Origin: Actinomycetes bacterium
Lineage (GTDB): Bacteria > Armatimonadota > SYMT01
NCBI GenBank assembly: GCA_031426395.1
Contig: JANPLG010000182.1
Location: forward strand, 6,984-70,983
Reading direction: 5' to 3'
DNA: 64,000 bases
The translations under genes and the position numbers were made by a program. The notes beneath the pieces are model-generated. The model ran no database searches. It was not told the origin of the DNA and was given only the letters and a program-made list of their open reading frames with translations. Of this stretch, positions 10,578 to 54,622 are shown piece after piece (position 1 is the stretch's first letter; every line of letters begins with the position of its first letter).

Positions 10578-10601
10578 AATCCTAATCCTAATCCTAATCC
10601 T
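10578..10601. repeat. Tandem hexamer (TAATCC) x4 in the divergent hemQ/amidohydrolase promoter region
   Basis: Direct read: taatcctaatcctaatcctaatcc. Confidence 0.7.
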
Positions 10602-10763
10602 ACTCAAAGCCCCGAGCCGCAGCCGATCTTCCGCCACGAGGCTGCGAATCGTCCCGCCTGCCTACTGTGGTCACGCAGGGATCGAGCTGCGTGAGGTCAA
10701 ACCAGCCATTATCAATCCACTCCCATCGCCGTTGACCAATGGGGAGCGGACAGCGGGGGCCCC

Positions 10764-12366: not shown

Positions 12367-12403
12367 GAGTTGGTGTGAAGTGAGTCGTGAGTGGTGACGG
12401 GCG

Positions 12404-13247: not shown

Positions 13248-13456
13248 ACCCACCTCCTCGCCGTCTGGAGACCGCCGTTCAAAGAGCGGCAATCCCCCGT
13301 TCTAGGCGACGGGCTGAGCAACCTGCGGAAAGAGTTGGAGGTATTCGTCCGCATCCATCTCGGCGCCCTTACACTGGCAACACTCAAGATCGCACGGCTG
13401 GAGGGCCTGCTGCAGGGCTTCCTCGCGTGCCGCTTGAAGCGGCTTGTCGCCAAGGG

Positions 13457-13920: not shown

Positions 13921-13944
13921 GCCAAAAGAACCACTGATCGCACG

Positions 13945-13976
13945 GTGGTTCGGTAGTTCGGTAGTTCGGTAGTTCC
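13945..13976. repeat. Tandem octamer (GGTWGTTC) x4
   Basis: Direct read: ggtggttcggtagttcggtagttcggtagttc. Confidence 0.7.
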
Positions 13977-14117
13977 CTTGCCCTTCAATGTCAGTCACGC
14001 TAACCCGTCGAAGTCTGTTGCTTTCTAACATTGCTCGGCATGCGCTCCACTTCGCCCCATAAGCGCTACAGCCAGCTACATGCTCTCATCGTAGACCTAT
14101 CAGGTAGGGGCAGAGGG

Positions 14118-15620
14118 TCACTTTGGCTCGCTTCTCAACGCCGTCTCCCCCTTCGCGCTGACCGTTGCCTCCGCAGTACGGGCGCTTGAGCCCGCCAGGG
14201 TGACCCGGTACCGGCCGGGCCGCAGCGAGGTGTACCGCGCCACACCCTCGGCATCCGTCTCAAGATGGGTCCACCGGATGCCGCTCCAGCGCCCCGCCTC
14301 CTGAAGCTGCAATCCAATGCGCACCCGCGATCTGGCAGGAAGCCCGCGAATGACCAACGTCCCGCCGCCGGTTGCCTGGAACGAACGGGTCGGCTCCTGG
14401 CCTTCCGGGATCACTCCCGGCGGGAGATCACCGTCCACGCTCCGTGTCCAGAGCTCTTCGGGAGGCAGGTCAAGGTCACCCATCTCAAATACATGCCGAT
14501 CCGTGCTGGGCCGCACCTCGGCGTACCGATAGATGAGGGACTGGATTCGCTCCGTGACACCGCTGTAGATCGCCAGGTTGGAAAGGCGTCCGGGGATGGG
14601 ATTCCGATTGCCGCGTCGGACGTTCCAGGGCCAGTAGAACCGGCCGGAGGCGCCCTGCAGGATCGGAGCAACCCAGGGAGTCCGCTCCACGCTCTCCACA
14701 GAGAGGTGGTCGCCGCAGCGGATGTTGGTGTGGACCATCCACGCTTCTTCGTCGGCCCGCAGCGCCTCCCGCTCCTCCGGCGGGACCCGGCCCGCCACGG
14801 CGATCTCCACTGTGACATCGCCGGCGGTCTTCTCGGAGTTCGCCTGGGTCAATGGCAGGACGAATTCCGCTCGCTGGATCTTGACCTCTTCCTTGGGGAA
14901 CACCACGGTGACCTTCCGGAGCCTGCGGGACTCCTTCCCAAGCCACCCCAATTCGGCGACGGCGTTGTACTCCTGCCTCCGCACCCGTGTTCGGAAGGAG
15001 GACCGCACATCAAGGGGGGCCGCGTAATCCCAGCCGGCCGTGTCCACCGCACGCACCATGCACTCCCGGGAGATCTCTTCGGGACGCTCGAAATCGACCT
15101 GAAGGAAGAGGGTGCCGCTGTGCCCCAGCACTTGTTCCGGCAATCCCTTCCGGCTGCGGAGGTGCTTTGTCACGGCCAACCGGAACTTGCTGATGACGAT
15201 TTCCCGCCCTGCCAGTATCTCCGGGTCCGGTTTTGCCGGCTCGATGGGGAACTGCCGCGAGGGGTAGAAGGGGTATCCTCCGTGGCTGCTGTCGCCACGC
15301 CGGATGCTGTAGGCCTTCTCCAGATCCGCGAGGACCATGGAGAGCTGCGCGCCGGACCAGGAAAGGTCGACGCGGGGCCCCGTATCCGACCCCTCGTAGC
15401 GAATCTGCATCGGGATGCCGGTCTCACGGGAGAGCGCCAGCAGCGCCTCTCGAACGGTGGCCTTCTCCAGCCGCAGGGTGACCCTGGGCGGGGCGGCGCT
15501 GCCCGCCGTTGCGGATGCCAGCAGCCCCAGCAGCACGAGCGACGCCACTGCGCACCACCGCCGGAGCAGGTAGGGAGCTTGCAATCGGAGTTTCACCTGG
15601 CGGAGCGGCATCAGGCGCAT
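14118..15620 (-). CDS. Hypothetical secreted protein (signal peptide; C-terminal beta-sandwich, carboxypeptidase-regulatory-like)
   Basis: 500-aa ORF with a hydrophobic N-terminal leader. The C-terminal ...LRPGRYRVTLAGS... resembles CarboxypepD_reg-type domains. No catalytic motifs recognised. Confidence 0.5.
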   Translation of the reverse strand: MRLMPLRQVKLRLQAPYLLRRWCAVASLVLLGLLASATAGSAAPPRVTLRLEKATVREALLALSRETGIPMQIRYEGSDTGPRVDLSWSGAQLSMVLADLEKAYSIRRGDSSHGGYPFYPSRQFPIEPAKPDPEILAGREIVISKFRLAVTKHLRSRKGLPEQVLGHSGTLFLQVDFERPEEISRECMVRAVDTAGWDYAAPLDVRSSFRTRVRRQEYNAVAELGWLGKESRRLRKVTVVFPKEEVKIQRAEFVLPLTQANSEKTAGDVTVEIAVAGRVPPEEREALRADEEAWMVHTNIRCGDHLSVESVERTPWVAPILQGASGRFYWPWNVRRGNRNPIPGRLSNLAIYSGVTERIQSLIYRYAEVRPSTDRHVFEMGDLDLPPEELWTRSVDGDLPPGVIPEGQEPTRSFQATGGGTLVIRGLPARSRVRIGLQLQEAGRWSGIRWTHLETDAEGVARYTSLRPGRYRVTLAGSSARTAEATVSAKGETALRSEPK

Positions 15621-16120
15621 CAGGCCTCCTCATCGCCGCGCATCGTGATCGGTCCGCAATTGGGCGGCAGCCAATCTATGAAGCGCTGAGCGATAGGAGG
15701 TCACAATCCACGGCCCGGTTTCTTGTCTCTTGGTTTCCACCTGGGCCAGTACGAACCCCTGATCACGCCCCCAGAACCCCGACAGGCTCGCTGGTATCCA
15801 TCCAGCCCACAGACCCCTCTGTTGCGATCGTTGCATTCTGAATTCTGCATCCTGAATTCCTAGCCCTGATCACGGATAGCACCCTGGCGGCCCGCAGTTT
15901 CCGGCGATACCGGGCGAGGGTAGACCTCGCCGGGCGGCAGGCGTAGCCCTGGGCGCGGATGGACCGTCGGATGTTCCACGGAACCTGGTGGATGGATCGG
16001 TGGCCTTACACGTATCTAAGACTAGGCAACCGTAGCACGCGCGTAGGGGGTTCCCCTGGCAACTCGCGAGGCGCGCGGAGCCAGGCAAGTCGCTTCCCTC
16101 TTTCCTGATCGAGGTCACTC

Positions 16121-17272
16121 GTGGCTACGGCATCCGTTTCACAGGCAGACTGGTCCCTCCACCGCAAGGGGTTCATCGACCAGGAACGGCACAAGGAGAA
16201 GATCAAGGAGGCCATCAAGAACAACCTCCACGAGATCGTCTCCCGGGAAGACATCATCCTGTCCGACGGCCGTAGGGTGGTGAAGGTCCCCATCCGCAAC
16301 CTGGAGCAATACAAGTTCCGATTCGATGACAACAAGGGGGAGCGCGTCGGCCAGGGGCAGGGCGGCACGAAGGTCGGCGATGTGATCGGCCGCGATCCCT
16401 CTCCGGGCCAGGGGAAGGGCAAGGGCGAGGCGGGCGACCAAGCCGGAGTCGACTACTTCGAGGCGGAGGTGAACGTCGACGAACTGGCGGCGCTCATCTT
16501 CGAGGACCTCGGCCTGCCGAACCTGGAGGAGAAGCGGAGCCAGCAGTTGGAAGCGGAGGCGGTCCAGTTCACGGACATCCGGCGGACCGGCATCCTCTCC
16601 AACCTCGATAAGCGGCGCACCATCCGGGAGAACATCAAGCGGAACGCTATGAAGGGCAGCGCCCGCTTCGGCGACGTGCGCAACGAGGACCTCCGATTCA
16701 AGACCTGGGAGCCGACCATCCGGCACGAGTCGAACGCGGTCATCATCGCCATGATGGACGTCTCCGGCTCCATGGGGGAGTTCGAGAAGTACATCGCCCG
16801 CAGCTTCTACTTCTGGATGGTGCGCTTTCTCCGGACCAAGTACCAGAACGTGGAGATCGTCTTCATCTCCCACCACACGGAAGCGAAGATCGTCACCGAG
16901 GAAGAGTTCTTCACCAAGGGAGAGAGCGGCGGCACCCGGGTCAGCAGCGCCTACGCCCTCGCGATGGACGCCATCCAGAACCGCTACCCCGCCAGCGACT
17001 GGAACATCTACCCCTTCCACTTCAGCGACGGCGACAACATGTTCAGCGACAACCGCGTCTGCGTGGACCTGGTCAACCGCCTCCTCACCGTCTGCAACCT
17101 CTTCGGCTACGGGCAGATCAAGCAGGGCTGGTATCCCGCCGGCACCCTGATGAGCGTCTACAGCCAGGAGATCGACAACGACAAGTTCGTGGCGGTCACC
17201 ATTGAGGACAAGGAAGACGTCTATCCCGCGCTGCGCAAGTTCTTCGCTGTGAGGGATCCCATCCCCGCGTAG
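16121..17272 (+). CDS. yeaH: YeaH/YhbH-family protein (DUF444, vWA-like; partner of PrkA and SpoVR), GTG start
   Basis: 383 aa, characteristic N-terminus (…KGFIDQERHKEKIKEAI…), Gly-rich central segment and vWA-like MIDAS region (MMDVSGSM). Confidence 0.85.
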   Translation: MATASVSQADWSLHRKGFIDQERHKEKIKEAIKNNLHEIVSREDIILSDGRRVVKVPIRNLEQYKFRFDDNKGERVGQGQGGTKVGDVIGRDPSPGQGKGKGEAGDQAGVDYFEAEVNVDELAALIFEDLGLPNLEEKRSQQLEAEAVQFTDIRRTGILSNLDKRRTIRENIKRNAMKGSARFGDVRNEDLRFKTWEPTIRHESNAVIIAMMDVSGSMGEFEKYIARSFYFWMVRFLRTKYQNVEIVFISHHTEAKIVTEEEFFTKGESGGTRVSSAYALAMDAIQNRYPASDWNIYPFHFSDGDNMFSDNRVCVDLVNRLLTVCNLFGYGQIKQGWYPAGTLMSVYSQEIDNDKFVAVTIEDKEDVYPALRKFFAVRDPIPA

Positions 17273-17283
17273 CCGCCGGGGTC

Positions 17284-17324
17284 CAATTTGCAATTCTCAA
17301 TTGACAATTGCAAATTGACAATTC
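17284..17324. promoter_or_regulatory. AT-rich element with CAATTG/TTGCAA palindromes and two TTGACA hexamers in the yeaH-spoVR spacer
   Basis: Direct read: caatttgcaattctcaattgacaattgcaaattgacaatt. It shares the 12-mer AATTGCAAATTG with the element upstream of asnS (26221-26266). Confidence 0.4.
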
Positions 17325-17371
17325 GGAGTCGGGCTTACTTTCCCCAGATCATCCACCCACCACTCACCAAG

Positions 17372-20041
17372 ATGAACACCGAACTGGATCAGCTCACCCA
17401 GGCCATTGAGGAGATCTGGGAAGCGGGCACGGCCACCACCGGCCTCGACCCCTTCCCGATCCACTTTGAGATTGTGCCGGCCAGCGTGATGTATGAGGTC
17501 GGCGCGTACGGGGTGCCGGGGCGCTTCTCCCACTGGACCCATGGGAAGGCGTTCCACCAGATGAAGACCATGTATGACTATGGTCTTTCCAAGATCTATG
17601 AGCTGATCATCAACACCAACCCGGCGCAGGCGTTCCTGATGGAGGGGAACAGCCTGATCCAGAACAAGCTGGTGATCGCGCACGTCATCGGGCATTCGGA
17701 CTTCTTCAAGAAGAACGTCTATTTCTCCCACACGGACCGCCAGATGGCGGAGACCGCAGGCGTCACCGCAGAGCGCATCCGCGCCTACGAGCGGGAGCAC
17801 GGCGAGCGCGAGGTGGAGCAGTTCCTGGACGCCGTCCTCGCCATCCAGGAGCATATCGATCCGAACCTGCGGGTGGTCCGTGGTCCCCATAACCCGGCGG
17901 CTCCGGTGCCTGCCCGGGCGGGTGACTACGACGACCTGCTGGGCGCAAAGCCAGAAGTGAAGAAGCCACTTGACCAGGATGGTCGGACGCTCATGGCACC
18001 GGAGAAGGACCTTCTCCACTTCCTGATGCACCACTCGCCCATCTTGAACCGCAACGAAGACAAGTGGAAGACGGACATCCTCAGCATCGTCCGAAACGAG
18101 ATGCTCTACTTCCTGCCGCAGATGCAGACGAAGACGATGAACGAGGGCTGGGCCTGCGCGACCGGCGAGAGTCTGTTGGCCACGGAGAATGGTTTACTTC
18201 GCTTCAGCGATCTTTACGAGCAACGGCGCAAGATCAAGGTGGGGGGAGGCGGCGCTGGTGCGGTGCACCAGATTACGGACTTCCACCACGAGAGCCAGGT
18301 ACCCACGCTGCGAATCACCACCCGCCGCGGATACACCATCGAAGGGGCGTTGCGGCACCGCGTGCGAATGGCGGACGGCTCCTGGAGTTTCCTCGAGGCA
18401 TGTCAGCAGGGCGACGCCATCGCGCTTGCGATGGGTACCGAGGTTTGGGCTCAGGAACCTGTTCCCCTAACCTGTGAAGCGGCACCCAAAGATGTGACCC
18501 TGCACGACGTTGCGGAGGCGGCAGGAACGTCGCTTTGGACCGTCCTTCGCTTCCGGGATGGCATGAAGACGCGCAAGGACGTTGAGATCGCTCAGGCGCT
18601 CACCACCTTAGGCTATGTGGATGGCCGCGAGGGAAAGGTCATCCCCAGTAGGCGCGAGCTTACCCCACCTGCTCATTTGAATGAGGCGATGGCCCATGTT
18701 CTTGGTAGCTTTGTTGGCGACGGAAACGTCACCAAGTCGGGAATTTGCATTACCTGTGGCGACGAGGATTATGCGCGGTCACTGGCCGACCTTGCAGGCA
18801 ACGTCTTCGGGATTCCGGTCACTCTTCGCGATGATGCCACCACCACCGGTCCTCGCTTCAGGATCGAACTCCACTCAAGAGATCTGCTGCGTCTGCTTGA
18901 GAACCTCGGGATCGACCTGAAGGCTAAGGCACCGGGGAAGTCCGTGCCCTGGTGCGTCCTGCAGTCGCCGCGCCCGGTGGTGGTGGCATTCCTCGCTGGA
19001 TACTTCGATGCGGATGTCTATGCGGGAGAGCACGGGATCATCCTGAGTTCCGCGAGTTCGGAGTTGGTGCGCACAGTACAGATCCTGCTCCTGAACTTCG
19101 GCATTCTCTCCACGCAGCGCCGAAAGCCGGATGGCTGCACGCACCTCGAGATCAAAGGAAGGTCTGCAGAGCGGTTCGTGAGCGAAGTCGGATTCCGCAT
19201 GGAGCGAAAGCAACGAGCGGCGGAGACCTATGTTCGGGAACGACGCTGGTTCAAGCGAGAGGATCCCATTGATGAGATTGTGAAGATCGAGGTCGGGACA
19301 GCGGACGTCTTCGACATCACCGTGGATGAGGTCCATGCCTACGTTGCGAATGGCCTTGTACACCACAACAGCTACTGGCACAGCCGCATCCTCCGGGAGA
19401 TGGACATCACCCCGGAGGAGCACATCGAGTTCACGCGGCTCCACTCCAGCGTGCTCTCCCCCTCGCCGCGAGGGACCTCCATCAACCCCTACTACGTCGG
19501 GTTCAAGATCTTCGAGGACATCGAGCGACGCTGGAACGGCGACCTCACCCCGGACGAGCGTCGCGAGTACCGGGAGCAGAACCACGGCCGCGAGTGGCCC
19601 CACCAGGGCCGTGGCCGCGCCAAGATGTTCGAAGTTCGAGAGTTGGAGAACGACGTCTCCTTCCTGCGGAACTACCTCACCAAGGGGCTGGTGGATGAGC
19701 TGGACATGTACATCTACCGGAAGGAAGGCGATGAGTGGGTGGTGGTGGAGAAGGACTGGCGGCGCATCCGCGACATGATCGTGGAGAGCATGACCAACTT
19801 CGGCTACCCGTACCTCACGGTGGAGGATGGTGATTACCACCGCGCCCAGGAGCTATACCTCAAGCACAACTTCGATGGGCGCGAGCTGGATCAGCACTAC
19901 GCCTTCCGCACCATGCGCTACATCCACCGCCTCTGGGGCCGCCCCATCCACCTGGAGTCGCTGGTGGACGGCCAACCCACCGTCTGGACCTTCGACGGCG
20001 AGAGGGAGCTGGTGGACGGCATCGCACCGGGGGCGGACTGA
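17372..20041 (+). CDS. spoVR: SpoVR-family protein containing an in-frame intein (extein 17372-18154 + 19370-20041)
   Basis: SpoVR-like N- and C-terminal regions (…HWTHGKAFHQMKTMYDYGLSKIYEL…, …SYWHSRILREM…). Start set at MNTELDQ, because the upstream 28 codons cover the AT-rich repeat. Confidence 0.85.
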   Translation: MNTELDQLTQAIEEIWEAGTATTGLDPFPIHFEIVPASVMYEVGAYGVPGRFSHWTHGKAFHQMKTMYDYGLSKIYELIINTNPAQAFLMEGNSLIQNKLVIAHVIGHSDFFKKNVYFSHTDRQMAETAGVTAERIRAYEREHGEREVEQFLDAVLAIQEHIDPNLRVVRGPHNPAAPVPARAGDYDDLLGAKPEVKKPLDQDGRTLMAPEKDLLHFLMHHSPILNRNEDKWKTDILSIVRNEMLYFLPQMQTKTMNEGWACATGESLLATENGLLRFSDLYEQRRKIKVGGGGAGAVHQITDFHHESQVPTLRITTRRGYTIEGALRHRVRMADGSWSFLEACQQGDAIALAMGTEVWAQEPVPLTCEAAPKDVTLHDVAEAAGTSLWTVLRFRDGMKTRKDVEIAQALTTLGYVDGREGKVIPSRRELTPPAHLNEAMAHVLGSFVGDGNVTKSGICITCGDEDYARSLADLAGNVFGIPVTLRDDATTTGPRFRIELHSRDLLRLLENLGIDLKAKAPGKSVPWCVLQSPRPVVVAFLAGYFDADVYAGEHGIILSSASSELVRTVQILLLNFGILSTQRRKPDGCTHLEIKGRSAERFVSEVGFRMERKQRAAETYVRERRWFKREDPIDEIVKIEVGTADVFDITVDEVHAYVANGLVHHNSYWHSRILREMDITPEEHIEFTRLHSSVLSPSPRGTSINPYYVGFKIFEDIERRWNGDLTPDERREYREQNHGREWPHQGRGRAKMFEVRELENDVSFLRNYLTKGLVDELDMYIYRKEGDEWVVVEKDWRRIRDMIVESMTNFGYPYLTVEDGDYHRAQELYLKHNFDGRELDQHYAFRTMRYIHRLWGRPIHLESLVDGQPTVWTFDGERELVDGIAPGAD
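18155..19369 (+). mobile_element. Intein (405 aa) with a LAGLIDADG homing-endonuclease domain, inserted in SpoVR between NEGWA and SYWH
   Basis: Block A CATGESLL, with Cys1 following extein ...MNEGWA. LAGLIDADG motifs LGSFVGDGNV and LAGYFDADVYAG. Block F VFDITVDEVHAYVANG. Block G ends LVHHN followed by +1 Ser. Confidence 0.85.
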
Positions 20042-23068: not shown

Positions 23069-25006
23069 CTAGTTGAATTGGACTCTTCGGTTCCGAAAAC
23101 CTGGCCCAGCGTTAAGCCCGCTGAGCCCGAATCGCAGTTCCCCCAACCCCGCTCAGCCGCCCAGTGGGAGGACGCGGGCCTGCAGGCTTGACAGCCCTCC
23201 TCGCCCGTACATCGTTCGTTTGATGGCCTTGAGGCGGTTCACGGTGCCCTCCAGCACGCCGTTGCTCCAGGGCTCCACCAATCCCGTGAGCACCGCGCTC
23301 CAGTCCTGCCGGAGGCCGGTGCAGAAGGACTTCAGCGGGCCGATCCCGCTGGCCCTCACGCGCTCGATCCACTGCTCGAGCGCGCGGGCCAGCGCCTCAC
23401 GCCCCAGCGGCTCCTCGCCGGTGTTCCCCCGCTCCCGGGCCAGCAAGCGAAGGAATTCGAGAGCCAGTTCCGTTGCCCGCCGCGCCTTGGGCGCCTGAAG
23501 GAAGAACTCCGCGGCGAAGATCGCCGCCCGGGCCGCGCGCCCGGACTTCGGGGACGGCTTGCCCAGGCCGGCGTGGAGGAGGCTCCACATCGCGTCCTTC
23601 AGCCGCCGGGCCTTGGCCGGCGGCGGCTTGGCCGGGTGGCGGGGCGGGCGGACCCCTCCCGCCGCCACAAGCGCGCGCCAGCGCCGGCGGACCCACTTCT
23701 CCACTGCGGAAGGGCCGTCCGGATAGCCCAGGGCCTGGAGCTCCCGCCACAGCTCCCCCGGTCCCCGGCACCCTTCCTCCCACCGGCGCTCGAGGCGCGG
23801 CAGATGGGGCGTCAGGGCCGTCGGCGCCGCGCGGTAGTCCTTCCTCTCGCGGAACGCGTCGCTGGCCATGAGGCGCGTGGCCGTCACGTGGTGGATGCCC
23901 AGCGCCTGGGCGATATGCTCCGCATCGGAGCCGCAAGCTTGCAGGCGCTTGACGGCTTGATACAGATCCAGGCGACGCTGGCGGCTGGCCCTGCTCCGCT
24001 CCCGCTCCGGCCCCGAAGAGCCATAACCGGGGAACCCATCATCCTGCTCCTGCTCCTGCTCCTGCCCCGGGGCCGGTGCCGAGCTCACCGCTCCGCCCGG
24101 GAGCGCCGACGCTGCGGGGGCCGCCGTTGATCCTGCTTCCTCCTGCCGAGCCAACCGCTCCGCCCGGGTGGCGGCCTCGATGGCGGCGGCCCACTGGCCC
24201 TCCTCCTGCCGGAGGTGGTCCAGCAGGGCCTGGGTCACTCCCTGCGCCAGATGGAACGGATCCGATCCCTGCGCGGACTGCGGCGCGCCCTCCCGGATCG
24301 CGGCGGCGTAGGTCTTGCTCCCGTCGCGGCTGACATGCTTGATCTCCGGGTGCCCGCGAAGCCAGGCGGCCAGCGTGGCCTGCTCACGATCCGGCAGGAG
24401 GCCGATCGGCTCATGGGTGTCGAGATCCACCAGCAGCGTGCCGTGGCGCCTCCCTTTGGCGAACGCGAAGTCATCCACCCCGAGGTGCGTCACCTTCCGC
24501 GCCGCCGCGCCGCGGTGGGAGAGGCTCCGCTGGAGTTCGCGGAGGACGGTGTCCGGGCTCACGCCAAAGCCCAGCTCGGCGGAAACAACCGCCCCGCGCT
24601 CTCCGCCCAGGCTGTGGCCGAGCAGCCGGAGCCATTTCACCACGTCGCACGCCCGGCGGCCATGGGGGGCGAGGAAACCGGGCAGCCGCTCGGTGAAGAT
24701 CCGCTGCGGGCACGTGGGGACATGGCAGAACCACTTGCGCGACTCGATGTCGGCGCGGAGGGGACAGCCGGCCCACGGGCGCAGCACGGCCACGCGGCGG
24801 TACCGGCTGTGGACCTTGGTGGAAAGCTGGTGGCAGCGCGGGCAGGCGGCTGCGGCGCGGCGGGTGGCGACGTCCAGGCGCAGGGCGCCATCGATCACGA
24901 AGGCTCGCAAGACGCGGACAAGCTCGGGCGCCGGATGCAGGGCAGGGGGTTGCATGCCTCCCCTTTCCCGCCTTGACACTTCTTGACACTGAGTCTCACC
25001 AACTTG
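23069..25006 (-). mobile_element. ISL3-family insertion sequence (about 1.94 kb), approximate ends
   Basis: Contains the ISL3 transposase ORF. Imperfect terminal inverted repeats at 23069-23090 (CTAGTTGAATTGGACTCTTCGG) and 24985-25006 (reverse complement CAAGTTGGTGAGACTCAGTGTC). It interrupts a beta-propeller gene. Confidence 0.55.
23153..24979 (-). CDS. ISL3-family transposase (608 aa, with a low-complexity Ala/Pro/QEQEQEQ insertion)
   Basis: N-terminal zinc-ribbon CPRCH, DDE region (HLGVDDFAFAKGRRHGTLLVDLDTHEPIGLLPDRE) and C-terminal ISL3 signature WSNGVLEGTVNRLKAIKRTMYGR. Confidence 0.85.
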   Translation of the reverse strand: MSRRERGGMQPPALHPAPELVRVLRAFVIDGALRLDVATRRAAAACPRCHQLSTKVHSRYRRVAVLRPWAGCPLRADIESRKWFCHVPTCPQRIFTERLPGFLAPHGRRACDVVKWLRLLGHSLGGERGAVVSAELGFGVSPDTVLRELQRSLSHRGAAARKVTHLGVDDFAFAKGRRHGTLLVDLDTHEPIGLLPDREQATLAAWLRGHPEIKHVSRDGSKTYAAAIREGAPQSAQGSDPFHLAQGVTQALLDHLRQEEGQWAAAIEAATRAERLARQEEAGSTAAPAASALPGGAVSSAPAPGQEQEQEQDDGFPGYGSSGPERERSRASRQRRLDLYQAVKRLQACGSDAEHIAQALGIHHVTATRLMASDAFRERKDYRAAPTALTPHLPRLERRWEEGCRGPGELWRELQALGYPDGPSAVEKWVRRRWRALVAAGGVRPPRHPAKPPPAKARRLKDAMWSLLHAGLGKPSPKSGRAARAAIFAAEFFLQAPKARRATELALEFLRLLARERGNTGEEPLGREALARALEQWIERVRASGIGPLKSFCTGLRQDWSAVLTGLVEPWSNGVLEGTVNRLKAIKRTMYGRGGLSSLQARVLPLGG

Positions 25007-26211
25007 GCGGGAGAGCCCTGGCGGTGGCCGCCGACCGTTCCGGGAATGCGATGGTCGCCGGCGACCGTCTCCTCGGCCCCGGCCGCTCGGGCCTGTTCGT
25101 TGCCTCGTTCAATGGCGCGGGCCGGGAGCGATGGACGGTGACGGAACCCGGCCAGCCCTGGTCGGGGGCGCAGGCGCGAGCGGCGGTGGTGGAACCTGGC
25201 GGCGATGTTCTCGTTGTAGGGGTGCTCGGCGTCACGCAGAGCGCTGAGATGGTGGTGGCGCGCTACGACGGCACCACCGGCGCCCGCGAGTGGCTGCGCG
25301 CTGTGGAGACGGTCACCCCGGAAGGCCCCACCGATGGCGGGGCGGGAAACTCGTTGGTTCTCGACGGCAATGGCGGGGTCCTGGCCGGAGGCTACGTGAC
25401 GGTCGGGGGCTCTCCCCGGGCGGCGGTCGCGAAGCTGGACGCCGCCACCGGCGAAATGCGGTGGACCTGGACCGGCGCAGTGGGTGAGGCACGGTCGGTG
25501 GCCGTGGGCCGACGAGCGGTCTTTGCGGTCGGCACGTCCTTCGCCGTCTGCCTCAACCCCGCGACGGGTGCCTCTTCCTGGACTGCAACCCTCCCCAGGG
25601 GAACGGCGTCGAGCGCTTCCGGTGCGGGCCGGCCCTACCTCCGTTCCGTGGTGGTGGACCGGAGCGGCACGGTGGTGGTGAGCGGCGCACTCCGCAACTC
25701 GGAAGAAGATACGCGGGCCTTCTACGTCGCCGGGCTTGAGCCGACCGACGGCCGGGTCCGCTGGCAGCAGAGTGGCCCGTCTGTCTGGGGCGCGGAGATG
25801 GCGGTCAAGGCGGTGGCGGATTCCGGGGGCAGTGTTTATCTGGGCGGGCGGATGCGCCAGTCGCCGACAGTGATGCGCCTCCGCCCGAACGGTGGCAGCA
25901 GCGTCTGGTCACGCCGACCGTGGACTCCAGACGGCGCACCGGACATGGCCACCGGTGTTCTCGACATTGCCGCGGATGACGGCTGCGTCTACGCCGCCGG
26001 CGCCGATGGCGCGGACCGCTTCCTGGTCACGGCGCTGAACACCAGCGGCAGCCCCAAGTGGCGCAGCGACCTCGGACCCGGCCGCGCGGTGGCCATCGCT
26101 CCCGCCATTGGGGATCGGCTCTTTGCGGTCGGCCGGCAGATGGTGAATGGTACGTCCAGCACGGTGCTGGTCGCGTATGGCAAGACCAAGGTGAGCGCCT
26201 CTCGGCGATAG
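25007..26211 (+). CDS. 3' portion of a PQQ-like beta-propeller repeat protein, 5'-truncated by the IS insertion
   Basis: Repeated G-rich blades (…AVAADRSGNAMVAG…, …LVLDGNGGVLAGG…, …VVDRSGTVVVSG…, …DIAADDGCVYAAG…). No credible native start, because the ORF track's Met lies inside the IS end. Confidence 0.5.
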
Positions 26212-48088: not shown

Positions 48089-49306
48089 TCACTCCGGCTC
48101 GTGATCTCTGAAGCGCCTACGAATCACCACCGCCGCCCGAAGGTGACCGAGATCCATGGTTCGACTCATCAAGCTCTTTAGGCGATGGATGAGCCGCGAG
48201 CCCCTGCCCTGGCGCTTCGGCAAGGCGAAATCACCTTCTGACTGCCCGTCTTGCACTTCGGCAACCTGGGCGGAAGGAACTGCTGGAAAGAGAAGCCGGA
48301 GAAGATCTCGCGGCCCGCTGGCACTCAGGCTTTCGATCAGCCCGTCAGGCCGATCGTAAGATGACCATTCCACTGCATAGCGGGCAAGATCCGCGATCGG
48401 AAGGCGGTGCTTCCGAATCGGAGCCGTGGCGGCGGAAGGCAGCGAGACGAGCCCTAGATGCTCCACGACACCCAGCATCACCGCCAGATCAGCCGCAGCG
48501 TTCGCCCCCTCGGCTCTAGCCCAGGCGACGTCCCAATCAAGGGTCGGATGAGCAGACAGCAGGGCCGCGACGTCCAGGTAGCTCCGCAGCGGGACCATCA
48601 GCTGATGACGGGCAGTGTGCACGGCCAGGATCAAGAGGTGGTCTTCAGCACTAGGCACCCGGAACTTTCTAGCACTACCATCCAGCGGCGCGACGGATCG
48701 CTCCAGGATTCCGGGCACGTCCATCTTGACCCCTGCTGCTGCCGGAGCGAGATCCCAGTGAAGTTCCACCAGAATGCTGTCCTTGCGAGCGAACGACCAG
48801 TGGTAATGGTTCTCAAGCAGATACTCGCGGCTATGCCCCAAGCAATCGCTCTGCCACTCATACCCAAGGCTCTCGAGCGCTTTGCAACCAGCATCCCTGT
48901 TCGAGGGGTGGACCAGAACGTCCAGGTCACCAAATCGACGCATTCCTCGGTAAGGATACTCGTGGAAAGCAAGCGCTCCACCCTTGACCACCACCGCGCG
49001 GATTCCGCACTCCTCAAGGGCTGAGCCAAGCTCCACCAGTTGGTTGAGAGCGTTGTCGGCCCGGAGTTCCCCAATGCGAGACTGCTGCCTCAAATGGCTG
49101 GAAGCCACCGGATCACATTCGAGGAATCCTGCTCGTCGGCCGTGATCGAGAAGGCTGGCGAGCCCGTGGAGCTCGATCGACGCGAAATCCGAGGGTGTCA
49201 GACCGAGTGGCTGCAACCCCGTTGAAGCTTCGGCGCGAACCACGCTGGCGAGGCGAGGCAGAACAGGTCGGAGCCGCTCCACGAGCGACTGGTCAATGGC
49301 TGGCAT
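48089..49306 (-). CDS. Nucleotidyltransferase-family protein (NTP_transf_5-like, 'uncharacterised nucleotidyltransferase'); last gene of the putative peptide-modification cluster
   Basis: 405 aa. NTase-fold motif RFGDLDVLVHPSNRD (hG[GS]…D.D). Translationally close (22 nt) to the upstream peptidase gene. Confidence 0.65.
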   Translation of the reverse strand: MPAIDQSLVERLRPVLPRLASVVRAEASTGLQPLGLTPSDFASIELHGLASLLDHGRRAGFLECDPVASSHLRQQSRIGELRADNALNQLVELGSALEECGIRAVVVKGGALAFHEYPYRGMRRFGDLDVLVHPSNRDAGCKALESLGYEWQSDCLGHSREYLLENHYHWSFARKDSILVELHWDLAPAAAGVKMDVPGILERSVAPLDGSARKFRVPSAEDHLLILAVHTARHQLMVPLRSYLDVAALLSAHPTLDWDVAWARAEGANAAADLAVMLGVVEHLGLVSLPSAATAPIRKHRLPIADLARYAVEWSSYDRPDGLIESLSASGPRDLLRLLFPAVPSAQVAEVQDGQSEGDFALPKRQGRGSRLIHRLKSLMSRTMDLGHLRAAVVIRRRFRDHEPE

Positions 49307-49328
49307 CGAATGGCGGCCCTTTCAGAGG

Positions 49329-49730
49329 TCAGGTGAGAAGGGAACGCACTCGCCTGTGAAGCGCCCACCAAGAGAAGCGCAGTCGCATCAGGATCGTCGG
49401 CTTAGCCACGTGAGAGACGACGCCCACCAGCGATTCCCACGGAAAAGGCGGGTCCGGATGCGGGTTGGCGTCCCCCTGGCAGTGGATAGTGGCAGGCTTG
49501 CCTTCTGCGTCCAGTTCAATCCGCGTGAGGCGGTGGACGATCAGGCGGGAGCCGGAGAGGTAGGCGACTGGCGCACCTTCCCTGGCCAGTTCGGGATCGC
49601 ATCGGATGGTGACGGTGCTTCCCACCGGAATGAACGGGACCATGCTGCCGGTGCTCACCGTGACCCGCATCTCGTCGCGCGTGTCCATCATCAGGCGGCA
49701 GAACGCATCAAGATGGAGTGCGGAATCCAT
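49329..49730 (-). CDS. S24/S26-like (signal-peptidase/LexA-fold) peptidase; start set at MDSALHL (the longer ORF start would overlap the kinase by 82 nt)
   Basis: TGSMVPFIPVGSTV matches the SM(x)PT(L/I) nucleophile motif. The position of the general-base Lys reads …LIVHRLTRI…, which may be a His in place of Lys. Confidence 0.5.
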   Translation of the reverse strand: MDSALHLDAFCRLMMDTRDEMRVTVSTGSMVPFIPVGSTVTIRCDPELAREGAPVAYLSGSRLIVHRLTRIELDAEGKPATIHCQGDANPHPDPPFPWESLVGVVSHVAKPTILMRLRFSWWALHRRVRSLLT

Positions 49731-49756
49731 TGTAGAAAGTAGTGGTCGACTCACCG

Positions 49757-50752
49757 TCAATGAGACCGCACCGCCAGAGCCCCGACCTTCCGCAGCACCA
49801 ATCGGGCAGTATCCACCGGTTCTCCAGAGGTCAAGCAAAAGCTGGGGAAGCGATCAGCGACACGAGCACACAGGTCAATCTGCTCGACGAAGCTGAGCTT
49901 GCCGCAGACCGTCGGCGAAAGCCTCCGAAGGGTTTCGCTTGCTGTCAGTGGCACCATGCTGGCTGCTTGCGCGAATCCCTGCATGAAGATGAAGACTGCC
50001 GATTTCGTTGGAAGTGGCCGGTCAGGAGAGTCAACCGCAGCAATGAGCTTCCGCTCTCCAGGACGGACCTGCACCCAGTTGTCTGGGGGAGCGTCCGCAC
50101 CAAGAAGCGCAACCCCTCCTTCACGGAGAAGTGGCGGTCGACAGATTGGCACCAGTTCAAGGCTGTCTCGCCTCAGGAAGAGGGAGTCGTCGCCAAAGTA
50201 AACAGCGCCTTCCCGATGCAAGGCCGATGCAAGTGTGGACTTCCCGGAGCGGCTCGGTCCCAAAAGAACGAGGGCCACATCGCCAACTGCCAAGGTGGCC
50301 GCGTGGAGAAGAACAACGGGAAGCAGGTCCAGAGTTAGGCTTGCCAGGCATCTGGCGAGATAGTTGCCCCACTGAAACTCGTCCGTGAAAACAAAAGTCT
50401 CCGCTTGCGTGTGGAAGATTGTCTCTACTGATTCACCGACTGCTGCTCCGGAATCAACCCACTGGACGGTGCCTGAGGAACTAGGGGGGCGTGGAGTCAC
50501 GCTGCTCCACATTGGATTGTCCATCAGGAGAGAGACCGACACACTCATACCGGCAACCATCAGGCGAAAAGAGCGATGCCCTTCTTCGTCACGGCCGATT
50601 TGGACTTCACACGACGGGCAATCCTGCTCCCCATCGTCGTCAATGCGCCATCCCTTTGGCATCGCGCGGCCGATGTACTGCTCGAAGTCACGGCTAGACT
50701 CAAAAACCAGGAGGACGTGGATGGGACCGAAAGCAATGCGGTGAGTGTGCAA
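49757..50752 (-). CDS. HprK-related P-loop kinase (HPr kinase C-terminal-domain-like); apparent TTG start
   Basis: LLHAATLAVGDVALVLLGPSRSGKSTLASALHREGAVYFGDDSLFL aligns with the HprK core (…G..vli.G.SG.GKS.lAl.L…G..lv.DD). Confidence 0.7.
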   Translation of the reverse strand: MHTHRIAFGPIHVLLVFESSRDFEQYIGRAMPKGWRIDDDGEQDCPSCEVQIGRDEEGHRSFRLMVAGMSVSVSLLMDNPMWSSVTPRPPSSSGTVQWVDSGAAVGESVETIFHTQAETFVFTDEFQWGNYLARCLASLTLDLLPVVLLHAATLAVGDVALVLLGPSRSGKSTLASALHREGAVYFGDDSLFLRRDSLELVPICRPPLLREGGVALLGADAPPDNWVQVRPGERKLIAAVDSPDRPLPTKSAVFIFMQGFAQAASMVPLTASETLRRLSPTVCGKLSFVEQIDLCARVADRFPSFCLTSGEPVDTARLVLRKVGALAVRSH

Positions 50753-50887
50753 AGCGGTGTGCCTGGAACGGACACGTTGGGGCGGGCCGCAGGGATCGGC
50801 GGTCTGCGAACACCCGAACGGAAGCGGCTTCGAACCACGGACTTGCTTTGCCCCGGGTCTAGGAAACCACGATTCGGCTTGAGCGCC

Positions 50888-50930
50888 AAAAAGCGGGGGA
50901 AGACTAGTTCGAGCCAGTCTCCCCCCGCCC
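50888..50930 (-). terminator. Hairpin + U-tract terminator/attenuator immediately after the small peptide ORF (minus strand)
   Basis: Minus-strand read: GCGGGGGGA-gactggctcgaactagtc-TCCCCCGC-TTTTTGG. It lies 11 nt after the peptide stop and about 135 nt before the kinase start. Confidence 0.6.
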
Positions 50931-50940
50931 TGTCAGCTAC

Positions 50941-51039
50941 CTAGGGCACCTGCCCTGTAGGAACGGCCACTGCCTCCACCGACGTGGTGAGCTCCGCTTC
51001 GGTGCTGGTGGTGACTTCAGGCTTCTCGTAAGTTCCCAT
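50941..51039 (-). CDS. Candidate precursor peptide (32 aa): MGTYEKPEVTTSTEAELTTSVEAVAVPTGQVP
   Basis: ATG preceded by AGAGAAAGG. Rich in Thr, Ser, Glu and Val. Positioned as the first gene of the kinase/peptidase/NTase cluster and followed by a terminator hairpin. Below the ORF-track size cut-off. Confidence 0.4.
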   Translation of the reverse strand: MGTYEKPEVTTSTEAELTTSVEAVAVPTGQVP

Positions 51040-51103
51040 GCTGCTTGCCTTTCTCTAATGGGGGCTGGCCCTTACCCATTATGCCGCCCGCTTGCTGCGT
51101 GTG

Positions 51104-51137
51104 CTACCAGGATCAGAATTCACCCTGATCCTGGTAG
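51104..51137. promoter_or_regulatory. Perfect 13-bp inverted repeat (CTACCAGGATCAG-aattcacc-CTGATCCTGGTAG) between the DUF11 gene stop and the peptide ORF; candidate operator, with a CATAAT -10-like hexamer downstream
   Basis: Direct read. The stem is perfectly palindromic, with no U-tract on either strand. Confidence 0.4.
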
Positions 51138-51147
51138 CGCGGATTCG

Positions 51148-53940
51148 CTAGAAGCCTTCGCCCTCGGGGTGGATTCGGAAGGTGTAGACATCCTGACAAG
51201 CATTGCGGTACTCGCCCACCGCGTTGTAGGCATAGGCCCCGCGGACCATCTGGAAGTCCGCCCTTACGCGCGCCATCCATCCGGCCGGGTAGGTGTTGGC
51301 GGCCGGCGCAGGATCACCGGTGCTGGCGATGTCCACGGGAGGAAGGACCGTGAAGGTGCCAACCTGCTGAGTGGCGCCGTTCTGGTTGAGCGAGATGTAG
51401 TTCAGCTTGTGGTTGAATGCTGTTCCAGGCCCGTCGAACGGCTGCAAGAACACCACCGAGGTGTCGAACGGCCTTCTGATGATGTTGTCACCGTCGTTGT
51501 AGCCCTGTTCCACCGCAACCTGATTGACGAACGTACAGGAGTTCCAGTTCACGTCCGAAACGAACGCAGAGGTGAGGTAGACCCAGATCTCGCGTCCGGG
51601 GCCAAAGGTCCCCAGCTCGGGTCGATAGGGGATCTGCCCTACGAACTTGAAGGTCTTGCCTGCGCTGCCGAACCGGAAGGCCGGGTTCGCCAGATCGGCG
51701 GCGGTCATGGTTGCGCCGCCTACGTTCAAGTTGGAGTAGGATGCGGCATCCGAGAAGTAGGCCTCGCCGCAGAGCATCTCGACAGCGCGGTAGGCCACCG
51801 GCAGCGGGGAGACGGGGATGTCACCCAGGTTCTGGTCCGGGCCAACCGTGAAGGCACCCGTGGTGGTGATGATCCGGTTGGCGGCGGTGATCCGCACCCG
51901 GTAGCTGCCTGCGCCCACGCCGGTGAATGAGAAGTTGCCCGTGACGAGGTCAGAGGTCACCGAGGCGACCACCAGGCCGGTGCCGGCATCCAGCAGCTCC
52001 ACCAGCTTGCCCTTGAGGGGACCGCCCGGAGCGTCGAACAGGCTCACCAGGGTGGGCTCGTTGTAGGCGCTCGGGGGTCCGCAGATGGGGCGGCCGGTGA
52101 TGGCGTAGGTGGGGACGTCCGCGCGAAGGAACAGGGTAGCGTCAACTTCGGCGGTGCAGCCGTAGCCCGCGATGCCGCTGATCAGTCCCAGGAAGTTGAA
52201 CGTCGTGCCGGCTGGCGTGGATGTCGGAACCGTGAACTGAGCGGAGAAGCTCTTAACCCCGGAGCCAACGGCAACATCACCGATCTGAAGGGTCTCGGAA
52301 CCAAGTCCGCCATCGCCCGCAAGCACCAGGATCACGCTGCGGAGGTCCGCATCGCCATTGTTCTGGTACGTGCCGTGGACGGTGAAGGTCTGGCCGGGCA
52401 GCAGGGTGCCGGTGATGGGGGTAAGGCGAAGATCGAGCGAAGGGCTGATCACCTGCAGGTTGCCGTTGCCAGAAGCGGCAACCGGTCCGCCAGACACAGC
52501 TTCCGTGCCGGAAACCGGCAGCGTCACGATGCCCGTGTTGTTCGGGCCATTCACCTTGACCGTCACCGAAACGTAAGCGTTGGGGGCCAGGGAAGTGGTG
52601 CTCAGTGCGCCGACCACGAAGCTTCCGGCACCCGTGGTGCTGGTAGGGGTCCCCGCCACCAGACCGTTCACCGTGGCTTCACCGGTGTTGGTGATGGTGA
52701 AGGTGAGGGTGGGAGAGCCGCCCGGCTTGGTGCAGACGTTGCTGCCCACAACGGCGAGGCCGGTGGTCAGCGAATCCGTGGTGGTGGTGGCCTGCGCGGT
52801 GATGTTTGCGCAGCCGCAGGCTTCCTTGGCCGTGCCGGTCAGGATGATGCTGCCATCCGAGCCGGTTCCGGTGTAGCTAACCACTACCTGGGCGGTCTCG
52901 TCGGGGGCGAGGGCGGTCTTGGTGGGAGCGCCGACCGTTGCCGTTCCGCCCGTAGCGCTGACCTGGAGCGCGAGGTTGGTGACCGCGACATCGCCACTGT
53001 TGGTGATGGTGTAGGTGACCTGCTTGGTGCCGCCCGTGGCAATGCTGATGGAGGCCGGGCCACTCACCAAAAGGCTCGGATGGGAAACCGTGGTGGTGAT
53101 CCCGCCGCTCACCGTCTTCACCGGGATGCTTCCGCCGAGCACCGCATCACCCCAGGTAGCGGTGACGCTGTTGACCTTGGTTGCCGATGCAGTGGTCACC
53201 GTGGTCGTGCGGGTGGCGGTGATGCAGGTGTTAGCCGCGATGGTGGCTGGCGTGGAGACGACACCGAAGGAGTCGGTGAGCACCACGTTGACCGCGCCGG
53301 TCTGGCCCGTGTTGCAGAGCTTGTAGGTATAGGTGATGGTCGAGCCGCTCACCACGCAGACGCGGTCCGCCATCACTTCCAGGGTGAGGCGTGCGGGGGC
53401 AGGAGTGGTGGTGCGGTCCGAGAAAAAGGTCTTGCCGCCGGGCCGAATCACGTGGAAGGTGAACTGCCACGCACTATCCGGGATGACTCGGTTGAAGGTC
53501 AGGGTGTGGAGCGTGGCCGGGAAGGATTCGCCCGGCTCCATGTTGGTATCGGGGATGCCGTTTGCGTTGTAATCCGGCCCGCCCTGGTAGTCCCACCATG
53601 AAGGATTGCCCGGCTTCGAGCTGCCGTTGGGGATGACGCTCATCGCGGTGGGCGAGACGCTTCCGCCGGTGGGGCCAACACCTACCAGCAGGCCCTTCAG
53701 GCCCGCAAGCGCGGGGGTGTTGCTGGGCACGGAGACCGCGAAGCCGTACTTGTACGTGCCGGCCGCTGAAGGAAGAAGGGTGGGGATGACGGTGGCGTAA
53801 CTGGACGCCGGCGGGTTGGTGATGTTGTTGCCGTACTGCGGGACCGCGTGCGCGGGCCTGGCGGCAAAAAGGGCGAAAGAGGAGACCGCCAGTGCCAGAT
53901 AGGCCGCTGGACGGGTTAACCGGGTCCACATTGCTGACAT
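51148..53940 (-). CDS. Large secreted protein with DUF11/CARDB-like conserved repeat domains (Thr/Gly-rich beta-sandwich repeats); start set at MSAMWTRL with an AAAGGA RBS
   Basis: Signal peptide (…AAYLALAVSSFALFAARPAHA). Repeated …VTYTITNSGDVAVTNLAL…, …TLTFTITNTGEATVNGL… motifs typical of DUF11. Confidence 0.7.
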   Translation of the reverse strand: MSAMWTRLTRPAAYLALAVSSFALFAARPAHAVPQYGNNITNPPASSYATVIPTLLPSAAGTYKYGFAVSVPSNTPALAGLKGLLVGVGPTGGSVSPTAMSVIPNGSSKPGNPSWWDYQGGPDYNANGIPDTNMEPGESFPATLHTLTFNRVIPDSAWQFTFHVIRPGGKTFFSDRTTTPAPARLTLEVMADRVCVVSGSTITYTYKLCNTGQTGAVNVVLTDSFGVVSTPATIAANTCITATRTTTVTTASATKVNSVTATWGDAVLGGSIPVKTVSGGITTTVSHPSLLVSGPASISIATGGTKQVTYTITNSGDVAVTNLALQVSATGGTATVGAPTKTALAPDETAQVVVSYTGTGSDGSIILTGTAKEACGCANITAQATTTTDSLTTGLAVVGSNVCTKPGGSPTLTFTITNTGEATVNGLVAGTPTSTTGAGSFVVGALSTTSLAPNAYVSVTVKVNGPNNTGIVTLPVSGTEAVSGGPVAASGNGNLQVISPSLDLRLTPITGTLLPGQTFTVHGTYQNNGDADLRSVILVLAGDGGLGSETLQIGDVAVGSGVKSFSAQFTVPTSTPAGTTFNFLGLISGIAGYGCTAEVDATLFLRADVPTYAITGRPICGPPSAYNEPTLVSLFDAPGGPLKGKLVELLDAGTGLVVASVTSDLVTGNFSFTGVGAGSYRVRITAANRIITTTGAFTVGPDQNLGDIPVSPLPVAYRAVEMLCGEAYFSDAASYSNLNVGGATMTAADLANPAFRFGSAGKTFKFVGQIPYRPELGTFGPGREIWVYLTSAFVSDVNWNSCTFVNQVAVEQGYNDGDNIIRRPFDTSVVFLQPFDGPGTAFNHKLNYISLNQNGATQQVGTFTVLPPVDIASTGDPAPAANTYPAGWMARVRADFQMVRGAYAYNAVGEYRNACQDVYTFRIHPEGEGF

Positions 53941-54622
53941 TCCTTTCCGCGGCTGGGGACCGCGGGTTTCTTGGTGCCGGGATTGGTTCCCAGTCGACCG
54001 GGCGTTTCGTGGGATGGAGCAGCGTTTGATCCGCCGGTAAGCGGGTGTCTGCTCGAGGCCACCTTCGATTTGCCGCTTGCCAAATCGGTGTGCACGCCAG
54101 GATGTCACGAAGCCCCCGTTTGGTCAACCTTCGATGGAGGTCGGGCTAGCTGCAGATCATCCTGTTGTCGGAGTTTGAACTGGGCGAAGGATGGATAAAG
54201 CTAAGCCCCCGCCGCAGTCCATTCTCGCCGACTTTCTTAGATAACGGTACGAAGCACCTAGCCAAGTACTATCGAGGGCAGGAGTGCCTCTGATGCCGCC
54301 CTCGCAGGGTCCGGGCCAACCGATCGGATTCCTGGCCACCCGGATACCTCTGGACATGGTGAAGGGCTCGCTTCCGGTTAGAAGGCGAAGCCTTGATTCA
54401 ATCGAGGAAGCGGGGGTGGTCAGAACTCTCGCCAGCCGCGAAGCTGGAACAGGCGGGGCATGGGGGATCAGACTTCATTCGCAATGGATGGGAGAGAACT
54501 AGATCAGCCACCCAGATTGCGGGGCAGGGAACTCCGACTTGCAACGTGAACGAACGTCCAAGAACCGGGTGGCTGACGGTTCCCGCTCTGACTCACGGCT
54601 CTCCACAGAGTGAGGTGACGGT

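Follow-up and report, generated by a model that had tools for sequence, protein, structure and literature searches.

A conserved 32-codon gene beside an HprK-like kinase in an Armatimonadota contig probably encodes the precursor of a linear phosphorylated peptide

Introduction

Contig JANPLG010000182.1 of assembly GCA_031426395.1, deposited as an Actinomycetes bacterium and placed in Armatimonadota by GTDB, carries a 32-codon open reading frame (ORF) that is followed by a GC-rich hairpin and lies upstream of a gene for an HprK-like kinase. We analyzed a stretch of 64,000 nt of this contig (positions 6,984 to 70,983 of the forward strand), hereafter the window. Is this small ORF a gene and, if so, what does it encode? 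The first-pass annotation had proposed the precursor of a peptide made by ribosomes and modified after translation (a RiPP), with the hairpin setting the ratio of precursor to modification enzymes. We found that the ORF is a conserved coding gene whose synteny holds among relatives. From its family and its neighbors we consider it most probably a genuine translated gene whose product is the source of a linear phosphorylated RiPP, of the type recently described as linear polyphosphorylated peptides (LPPs).

Conservation of the Small ORF

The ORF lies on the minus strand and extends from the ATG at 51039-51037 to the TAG at 50943-50941 (gene 50941-51039), exactly where the first-pass annotation had located it, and its product is MGTYEKPEVTTSTEAELTTSVEAVAVPTGQVP. 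Thr and Ser account for 9 of the 32 residues, that is 28% and not the 31% given earlier. A Shine-Dalgarno (SD)-like sequence, AGAGAAAGG, is seen 8 nt before the ATG (51048-51056, minus strand); its GAAAGG is the weakest SD found among the members of the peptide family described below. Two public gene sets list the ORF as a gene. A 32-codon ORF taken alone is within chance expectation, and conservation is what sets this one above chance, so that the locus offers a concrete example of a real 32-codon gene below the usual size cut-offs of annotation. No match was obtained in a sigma-70 promoter scan, the sigma-70 consensus being uninformative for the host lineage.

Relatives were taken from loci fetched around members of the subfamily to which the window kinase belongs. 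A homologous small ORF was present in every relative locus with enough upstream sequence: one each in L019, L022, L057, L060, and L063 and two in L004, a Capsulimonadaceae metagenome-assembled genome (Armatimonadota). Window included, the family counts eight peptides in seven loci, all beside the same kinase subfamily, and has in common a 22-residue block which, aligned on its Tyr, reads Y-x-x-P-x-[VMI]-x-[ST]-x-[ST]-E-x-E-L-x3-[VMI]-[ED]-[AGV]-x-[GA]. Every conserved family position is retained in the window peptide. Comparing small ORFs near HprK-like kinases for conserved Thr/Ser positions had been suggested at the outset, and block positions 8 and 10 proved to be invariantly Ser or Thr. 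The window precursor has the layout MGT-YEKPEVTTSTEAELTTSVEAVA-VPTGQVP, in which residues 4-25 are the conserved leader block and residues 26-32 the variable tail. Across the family the tails are 6-14 aa long (VPTGQVP, VSGQQIISVG, VSGIGEAR, SGVGVGASPTTNEE, APVPGLSI, AISVPPGP, ASGGGPYY, and FPTLPGAP). A 36-aa "gene" in L061 was considered as a further precursor and rejected; it is the tail of the PqqD gene.

The homologues of the window ORF (E = 1e-9 to 1e-21) occur at syntenic positions only. When the family profile was run against the six-frame translation of the window, the ORF was recovered at E = 4e-17 and the next match had E = 3; in more than 60 fetched loci the profile did not match anything other than ORFs beside genes of the kinase subfamily. 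The nucleotide changes are those of a coding sequence: 117 of 210 codon pairs for identical residues use different codons, third positions differ at 0.61 per site versus 0.36 at positions 1 and 2, and identity in frame 0 is 0.47 versus 0.28-0.30 in the other frames. All relatives have near-perfect SD sites, GGAGGTGA or GGGGGTGA, at the same place as the SD of the window. The first-pass annotation had stated that loss of the ORF from syntenic loci that keep the hairpin would reduce the latter to a plain terminator; the ORF was found in the syntenic relatives, conserved with coding-type substitutions.

The arrangement of the gene varies. In L004 two precursor copies stand in tandem at 5167-5274 and 5514-5615, 347 nt apart; their leaders differ by one residue, their tails are VSGQQIISVG and VSGIGEAR, and both copies come with an SD and a 3' hairpin of their own. 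In L019 and L057 the precursor gene is about 4 kb from the enzyme genes, with oppositely oriented genes between. Because of this tandem duplicate and of these distances, the precursor gene is not a cis-acting upstream ORF.

Enzyme Genes of the Cassette

Downstream of the precursor gene, on the same strand, follow genes for a kinase, an S26 peptidase, and an NTP_transf_5 protein, and then pyrD and ispH. The kinase gene (49757-50662, minus strand) encodes 301 aa from its ATG; an upstream TTG at 50752 is possibly the true start. The protein matches TIGR04352 (HprK-related kinase A) at E = 2e-10, under the cut-off, matches HPr kinase models weakly as well, and contains the P-loop GPSRSGKST. Its AlphaFold2 model (predicted local distance difference test score 83.9, predicted template modeling score 0.83) gave as sole fold matches in the PDB the ATP-dependent PEP carboxykinases (PEPCK) and HprK/P, two families that have one P-loop kinase fold in common. 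A sequence search of the PDB returned P-loop matches only. Its catalytic core can be aligned gap-free (37% identity, 43 residues) to BsfK, the peptide kinase of a lasso peptide system of Bradymonas sediminis, and H120, G135, K141, S142, D158, and D159 of the window kinase correspond at identical spacing (offset 28) to H148, G163, K169, S170, D186, and D187 of BsfK, which matter according to mutagenesis (PMC10368454). We read the protein as an HprK-like peptide kinase similar to LppK and BsfK.

Word-indexed searches for homologues of the kinase or of the NTP transferase recovered almost nothing besides the query itself. An exhaustive HMMER search defined a distinct kinase subfamily with about 30 cluster representatives (E = 1e-33 to 1e-16). 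A genome scan with GKSTLSWAL mostly returned distant HprK-like loci of the Sphingomonadales type, L004 alone belonging to the subfamily. Two weak matches, P0002 and P0005, were rejected as relatives; they come from unrelated clusters (the radical SAM locus L002 and the polysaccharide locus L003).

The second gene (49329-49730, minus strand; start codon uncertain, the ORF being open to 49838) encodes a soluble serine peptidase of the SipW/Sec11 type (S26B), the predicted leader peptidase and counterpart of LppS. It matches TIGR02228, the archaeal-type signal peptidase I, at E = 7e-10 and 38.9 bits, under the cut-off of 51.85. Invariant among six orthologues are the motifs S-M-x-P, V-H-R, G-D-x-N, and D (with S65, H102, D123, and D129), the Ser/His/Asp arrangement of Sec11/SipW; the six also have an N-terminal helix in common and lack a hydrophobic anchor. 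These peptidases are 27-39% identical (BLASTP E = 1e-8 to 1e-15) to published RiPP-type signal peptidases I (SpI) including LppS, and are about equally far from clusters 1 and 3 of the published sequence similarity network (SSN). The third gene (48089-49306, minus strand) encodes a 405-aa nucleotidyltransferase resembling the tailoring enzymes LppN and PsmN; its match to NTP_transf_5 (PF14907, E = 4e-43) is full length, covering profile positions 14-247 of 249. In the window kinase and peptidase, every residue that is invariant in the family is intact. The GC content at third codon positions (GC3) is 0.61-0.70 in the kinase-peptidase-nucleotidyltransferase cassette (48089-50752) versus 0.82-0.87 in pyrD and in the DUF11 and S8 protease genes on its flanks, which suggests a horizontally acquired island.

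LPPs are the products of lppAKBSDN of Paenibacillus alginolyticus (Popov et al., Nat Commun, May 2026, PMC13381572). The LPP core set comprises the SipW-like peptidase LppS, the RiPP recognition element (RRE) LppB, the HprK-like kinase LppK, the NTP transferase LppN, and an MsbA-like pump, and the domain table of the same study gives TIGR02228, PqqD, and NTP_transf_5 for peptidase, RRE, and NTP transferase (PMC13381572). The four-gene unit of the window is best read as an LPP-type cluster, in which the small ORF would be the LppA-like precursor, because its gene set matches this characterized core set. The initial proposal of a RiPP precursor thereby gained support on two sides, from the conserved homologues beside the kinase and from the match of the enzyme set to a characterized RiPP pathway. 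The HprK-like nature of the neighboring protein, also recognized at that stage, held at the level of motif and fold; the YxxPxV leader, the S26 leader peptidase, and the missing RRE had been overlooked.

Hairpins around the Precursor Gene

A GC-rich stem-loop followed by a run of five U's occupies 50888-50931 (minus strand) after the precursor stop. Its main stem of 15-18 pairs, G.U pairs included, and 6-nt loop span 50890-50931, with TTTTT at 50892-50888. The 66-nt segment folds at -38.6 kcal/mol versus a shuffle mean of -23.5 (z = -5.5), and none of 200 shuffles was as stable. The strong hairpin with TTTTT reported in the first-pass annotation was therefore there, the stem starting about 10 nt past the stop; its GCGGGGGGA core begins 12 nt past the stop, not 11. 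Judged as an intrinsic terminator, the structure combines an exceptional stem with a U-run of 5 nt only that is partly absorbed into the stem, a borderline signature. A consensus terminator scan does not list the 50888-50931 hairpin, probably because the base of the stem can take up two or three of the five U's in G.U pairs.

A stem-loop directly follows the precursor stop in six of the eight family members (the window, both L004 copies, L022, L060, and L063). The 3' hairpins of the relatives reach -48.9 kcal/mol, and in L019 and L057 they are weak or absent. On the 5' side, a 15-bp hairpin at 51103-51138 (minus strand; -34.3 kcal/mol, z = -5.6, no U-tract) sits 10 nt past the stop of the upstream CLIPPER/DUF11 gene and isolates the precursor gene from it. 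Since the DUF11 gene has this hairpin of its own, the one at 50888-50931 is not its terminator. The 99-nt precursor gene is bracketed by these two strong hairpins, which would make it a separately expressed unit. The recurrence of the 3' hairpin fits the earlier idea of an insulator or attenuator that adjusts precursor:enzyme stoichiometry, for which we infer partial termination and its efficiency. The element is probably a partial terminator or an mRNA-stabilizing structure that limits read-through into the enzyme genes; it may stabilize the precursor mRNA, let only part of transcription reach those genes, or do both.

Proposed Pathway

The N-terminal 25 residues of the precursor would act as leader, with T3-Y4-E5-K6-P7-E8-V9 as a lasso/LPP-type RRE-binding module, and residues 26-32 (VPTGQVP) are the predicted core, which has Thr28 at position 3. 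The HprK-like kinase would phosphorylate, once or perhaps several times, a Ser or Thr situated early in this short C-terminal core, Thr28 being the candidate. The soluble S26 peptidase may then cut the leader at or near the small-x-small junction A23-V24-A25, in front of V26, to give VPTGQVP. The classical rule for signal peptidases asks for small residues at -3 and -1, and the family has small residues at these putative positions (A-x-[GA]) of the boundary between conserved and variable parts. NTP_transf_5 may add a sugar or a nucleotide to the phosphate, as PsmN does in pseudomycoidin (PMC8498205). We infer the modification site, the cleavage site, and the role of the nucleotidyltransferase by analogy with the characterized LppA/K/B/S and BsfA/K/B1 systems. 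The product would be linear because a macrolactam synthetase is absent.

Several observations weigh against this assignment. Ser or Thr stands at tail position 3 in three of the eight members only (position 2 in three, positions 1 and 7 in one each), and LppK did not accept Thr at position 3 (PMC13381572). The true acceptors could be block positions 8 and 10, which are invariantly Ser or Thr. With a register as in the LPPs, 16 residues past the Tyr, the core would be a different one, SVEAVAVPTGQVP. After YxxPxV the family leader reads xSxTExELxxxVEAxG and that of the LPPs LxHQxIxFET/xxS (cut at the slash); because the two are unrelated, the LPP cleavage register is not transferable. No PqqD or other RRE was detected in the 64-kb window (tblastn best E = 0.4, profile best E = 1.2), and LppS requires its RRE to cleave (PMC13381572). 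The cassette has no exporter, and no ABC transporter was found among the neighboring ORFs scanned with Pfam, the flanks being pyrD and the CLIPPER gene. The NCBIfam matches of kinase and RREs are all under the curated cut-offs. Finally, the U-tract of the 3' hairpin is short, and the window is the only family member in which a U-run follows the hairpin.

The RRE is present elsewhere in the family. L004, L019, L022, L057, L060, L061, and L063 have a PqqD-like RRE; in L004, L019, L022, L057, L060, and L063 its gene directly precedes that of the kinase. Relatives of these RREs include BsfB1, LppB, and the RREs of SSN cluster 3 (PMC13381572). In the window that position corresponds to about 225 nt of apparently non-coding DNA between hairpin and kinase ATG (50663-50887, minus strand), in which no PqqD remnant was detected. 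L056 likewise has kinase, peptidase, and nucleotidyltransferase genes and no PqqD in the 340 nt upstream of the kinase. ABC-2 type transporters are encoded in L019 and L057. RRE and precursor are encoded elsewhere in the genome in some published LPP loci (PMC13381572), and a split cluster is plausible here. The window copy, having no local RRE or exporter, therefore uses ones encoded elsewhere, works without them, or is impaired.

Alternative Explanations

Could the ORF have arisen by chance in front of a hairpin that terminates the upstream DUF11/CLIPPER gene? ORFs of 32 codons are common by chance in DNA of 65% GC, and the DUF11 stop, on the same strand, is found 217 nt upstream of the hairpin. 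The DUF11 gene, however, has its own 15-bp hairpin 10 nt past its stop, and the exclusively syntenic homologues together with the clear coding signature leave a chance ORF extremely unlikely; as judged from these sequence comparisons, the conservation data effectively refute it. Highly unlikely, too, is a role of the ORF as cis-acting regulatory leader peptide without a function of its own, with the hairpin as a classical attenuator. Conservation of the amino acid sequence reaches across phyla and most codon changes are synonymous, no regulatory codon occurs in runs, the hairpin does not overlap the ORF, and the minimum free energy fold contains no alternative anti-terminator. What recalls an attenuator is the short ORF closely followed by a strong hairpin and U-run, upstream of a same-strand operon. 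We rejected classical attenuation since the gene is duplicated in one locus and, in two others, is separated from the enzymes by about 4 kb and oppositely oriented genes.

That the ORF encodes a lasso precursor, or a small partner or substrate of the CLIPPER protein, while kinase, peptidase, and nucleotidyltransferase act elsewhere (the S26 enzyme, for example, as SipW does for TasA), is very unlikely in our estimate. YxxPxV is the RRE motif of lasso precursors, and HprK kinase and NTP_transf_5 are known lasso tailoring enzymes; yet neither an Asn-synthetase-like cyclase nor a B2 protease was found in the window or in any relative locus, and no Asn_synthase or Transglut_core domain was detected among the scanned ORFs of the window or the called genes of L056, L057, and L060. 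The core rules for lasso peptides (G/A/S/C start, Asp/Glu at 7-9, Thr at -2, Tyr at about -17) fail as well: Tyr at -17 gives the core VEAVAVPTGQVP, which has no Asp or Glu at 7-9, the family has no conserved Thr at -2, and in the one register that yields Thr-2, Ala1, and Glu8 for the window peptide, position 1 of the relatives is K, E, D, or V. With cyclase and B2 protease not found and these rules broken, the lasso reading was rejected. A partnership with CLIPPER could draw on the CLIPPER gene directly upstream of the peptide in four loci, with its conserved C-terminal domain, and on SipW-type peptidases that process dedicated secreted proteins (cited in PMC13381572). Against it, the S26 enzymes have no membrane anchor and so would not reach the outer side of the membrane, where SipW acts, and the peptide accompanies the kinase set in seven of seven loci, whereas the CLIPPER gene is missing from L004 and L060. 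More serious, if still unlikely, is a genuine LPP-type precursor gene in a decaying or inactive remnant of a cluster that lost its RRE and exporter and makes no mature product. The window has no PqqD while six relatives encode one immediately before the kinase, LppS does not cleave on its own, the SD of the window is the weakest of its family, and the atypical GC3 of the cassette suggests an acquired island, published LPPs being often gained and lost. Decay is at odds with the intact invariant residues of kinase and peptidase, with the full-length NTP_transf_5, and with a peptide that keeps all conserved family positions. The PqqD-less L056 also speaks against it, as do published LPP loci with the RRE elsewhere and the basal activity of BsfK without RRE.

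Neighboring Genes and Other Loci

The gene upstream of the precursor (51148-53943, minus strand) encodes a secreted surface protein with CLIPPER_2 and DUF11 repeats, according to Pfam and NCBIfam matches. A CLIPPER/DUF11 gene is found directly upstream of the precursor in the window, L019 (34-381), L022 (10-186), and L057 (302-4015), and the window protein is homologous over its full length to that of L057 (E = 8e-43). The C-terminal domain of about 200 aa (...GWMA...F.IHPEGE) has no Pfam match and is conserved, including in L019 and L022. The gene is a syntenic neighbor, and a functional link to the peptide is a candidate. A bolder and rather improbable extension of the LPP-type reading would see in this family a distinct, non-Bacillota branch of phosphopeptides: linear phospho- or glyco-phosphopeptides of about seven residues, RRE-less in some genomes where the leader would be read directly, and coupled to a CLIPPER-type isopeptide-bonded surface protein, for example as surface or biofilm modifier or as signal. 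If true, such a branch would give the first functional handle on LPP-like peptides. The family presents the same enzymatic logic (YxxP leader, HprK-like kinase, SipW-like peptidase, NTP_transf_5) outside the Bacillota and provides a clade whose precursors had not been identified with a motif and with precursor sequences. Its natural RRE-less variants could test the RRE dependence of kinase and peptidase.

Among the relatives, L060 carries a variant cluster (2014-9732) with a cytochrome P450, an acyltransferase, proteins of 358 and 326 aa without Pfam match, and a 58-aa ORF; these additions suggest extra tailoring chemistry. L002 contains a different RiPP-like cluster (8001-17038) with two tandem HprK-like kinases, two B12-binding radical SAM enzymes, an NTP_transf_5 protein, a methyltransferase, and a glycosyltransferase, in which no peptide of the family was found.

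Three further features of the window lie far from the cassette. Four Acido-Lenti-1 RNA motifs (RF01687), all above the gathering score, are arranged in two pairs on the plus strand at 5422-5466, 5488-5532, 5689-5733, and 5755-5799; taken by themselves, they hint that the contig originates from Acidobacteriota or Lentisphaerota. A SpoVR-like protein (17273-20041, plus strand) contains an apparent intein, with Intein_splicing and LAGLIDADG_3 domains between the N- and C-terminal parts of SpoVR. An ISL3-family transposase ORF (23153-25108, minus strand) falls within the segment where the window reaches its highest GC content (72%, 24-26 kb).

Comparison with Known Systems

In LPP precursors a conserved N-terminus, YxxPxVLxHQxIxFETxxS, is joined to hypervariable C-termini; Ser3 of the core is polyphosphorylated by LppK, and LppS cleaves after T-1 to release the leader, which it does only on presentation by LppB and preferably with the phosphorylated precursor (PMC13381572). 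The role of LppN and the biological function of LPPs are unknown (PMC13381572). The window family resembles this system in its enzyme families, that is a TIGR02228-type soluble Ser/His/Asp peptidase with N-terminal helix, an HprK-like kinase, and NTP_transf_5. It also has short precursors that join a conserved N-terminus containing T-Y-x-x-P-x-V to a hypervariable C-terminus. Macrolactam cyclases are absent from both, both have cell-surface gene neighbors and signs of horizontal transfer, and the discrete PqqD RRE of the LPPs has its like in the relatives of the window only. The sequence likeness of the leaders is confined to the motif: a profile of 14 published LppA sequences aligned to the family peptides over (T)YxxPxV only, with E = 0.001-1 in a set of 8.

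The differences are of several kinds. LPPs are stated to be confined to Bacillota, with frequent gain and loss (PMC13381572), and the window family is not from Bacillota, L004 being Armatimonadota. In the SpI table of the same study, SSN cluster 3 includes homologues of Acidobacteriota, Myxococcota, and Chloroflexota, some of them with RREs; the precursors are given there as 'ND' (PMC13381572). The tails of the window family are 6-14 aa long versus a core of 45 aa in LppA, the exporter of its relatives is of the ABC-2 type and not an MsbA-like pump, the window copy has neither RRE nor exporter, and a CLIPPER/DUF11 gene is a syntenic neighbor.

The phosphorylated lasso peptides offer a second comparison. 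The residue phosphorylated by BsfK is the third of the core; Thr is accepted, and a low activity remains without the RRE (PMC10368454). In addition to the kinase core, the YxxPx[LV] leader motif is common to both systems (YKKPQLT in BsfA, YEKPEVT in the window), and NTP_transf_5 is likewise a companion in Bsf and in paeninodin and pseudomycoidin (PMC8498205). The window differs in that cyclase and B2 cysteine protease are lacking, leader removal is predicted to be carried out by a serine peptidase of family S26, and the peptide is unable to form a 7-9-membered macrolactam; the C-terminal Ser acceptor of paeninodin is absent from it.

The best curated models were those of the HPr-rel-A system (TIGR04352 for the kinase, TIGR04353 for the PqqD chaperone), with 40-46 bits for the kinases and 25-30 bits for the RREs of the relatives, scores far under the cut-offs of 200 and 35 bits. 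Precomputed Pfam labels call the kinases of the family 'ScmC (weak)', after the SynChlorMet system (ScmC/ScmD, PF27840), and radical SAM genes are absent. To our knowledge, both systems are themselves uncharacterized. With the signal peptidases SipW and Sec11 (S26B), finally, the window family shares the catalytic motifs S-M-x-P, H-R, and G-D-x-N...D and the small residues at the putative -3 and -1 positions. Unlike them, the enzymes have no transmembrane anchor and their substrate has no signal-peptide h-region, and we predict that they are cytoplasmic and, in the relatives of the window, probably guided by the RRE.

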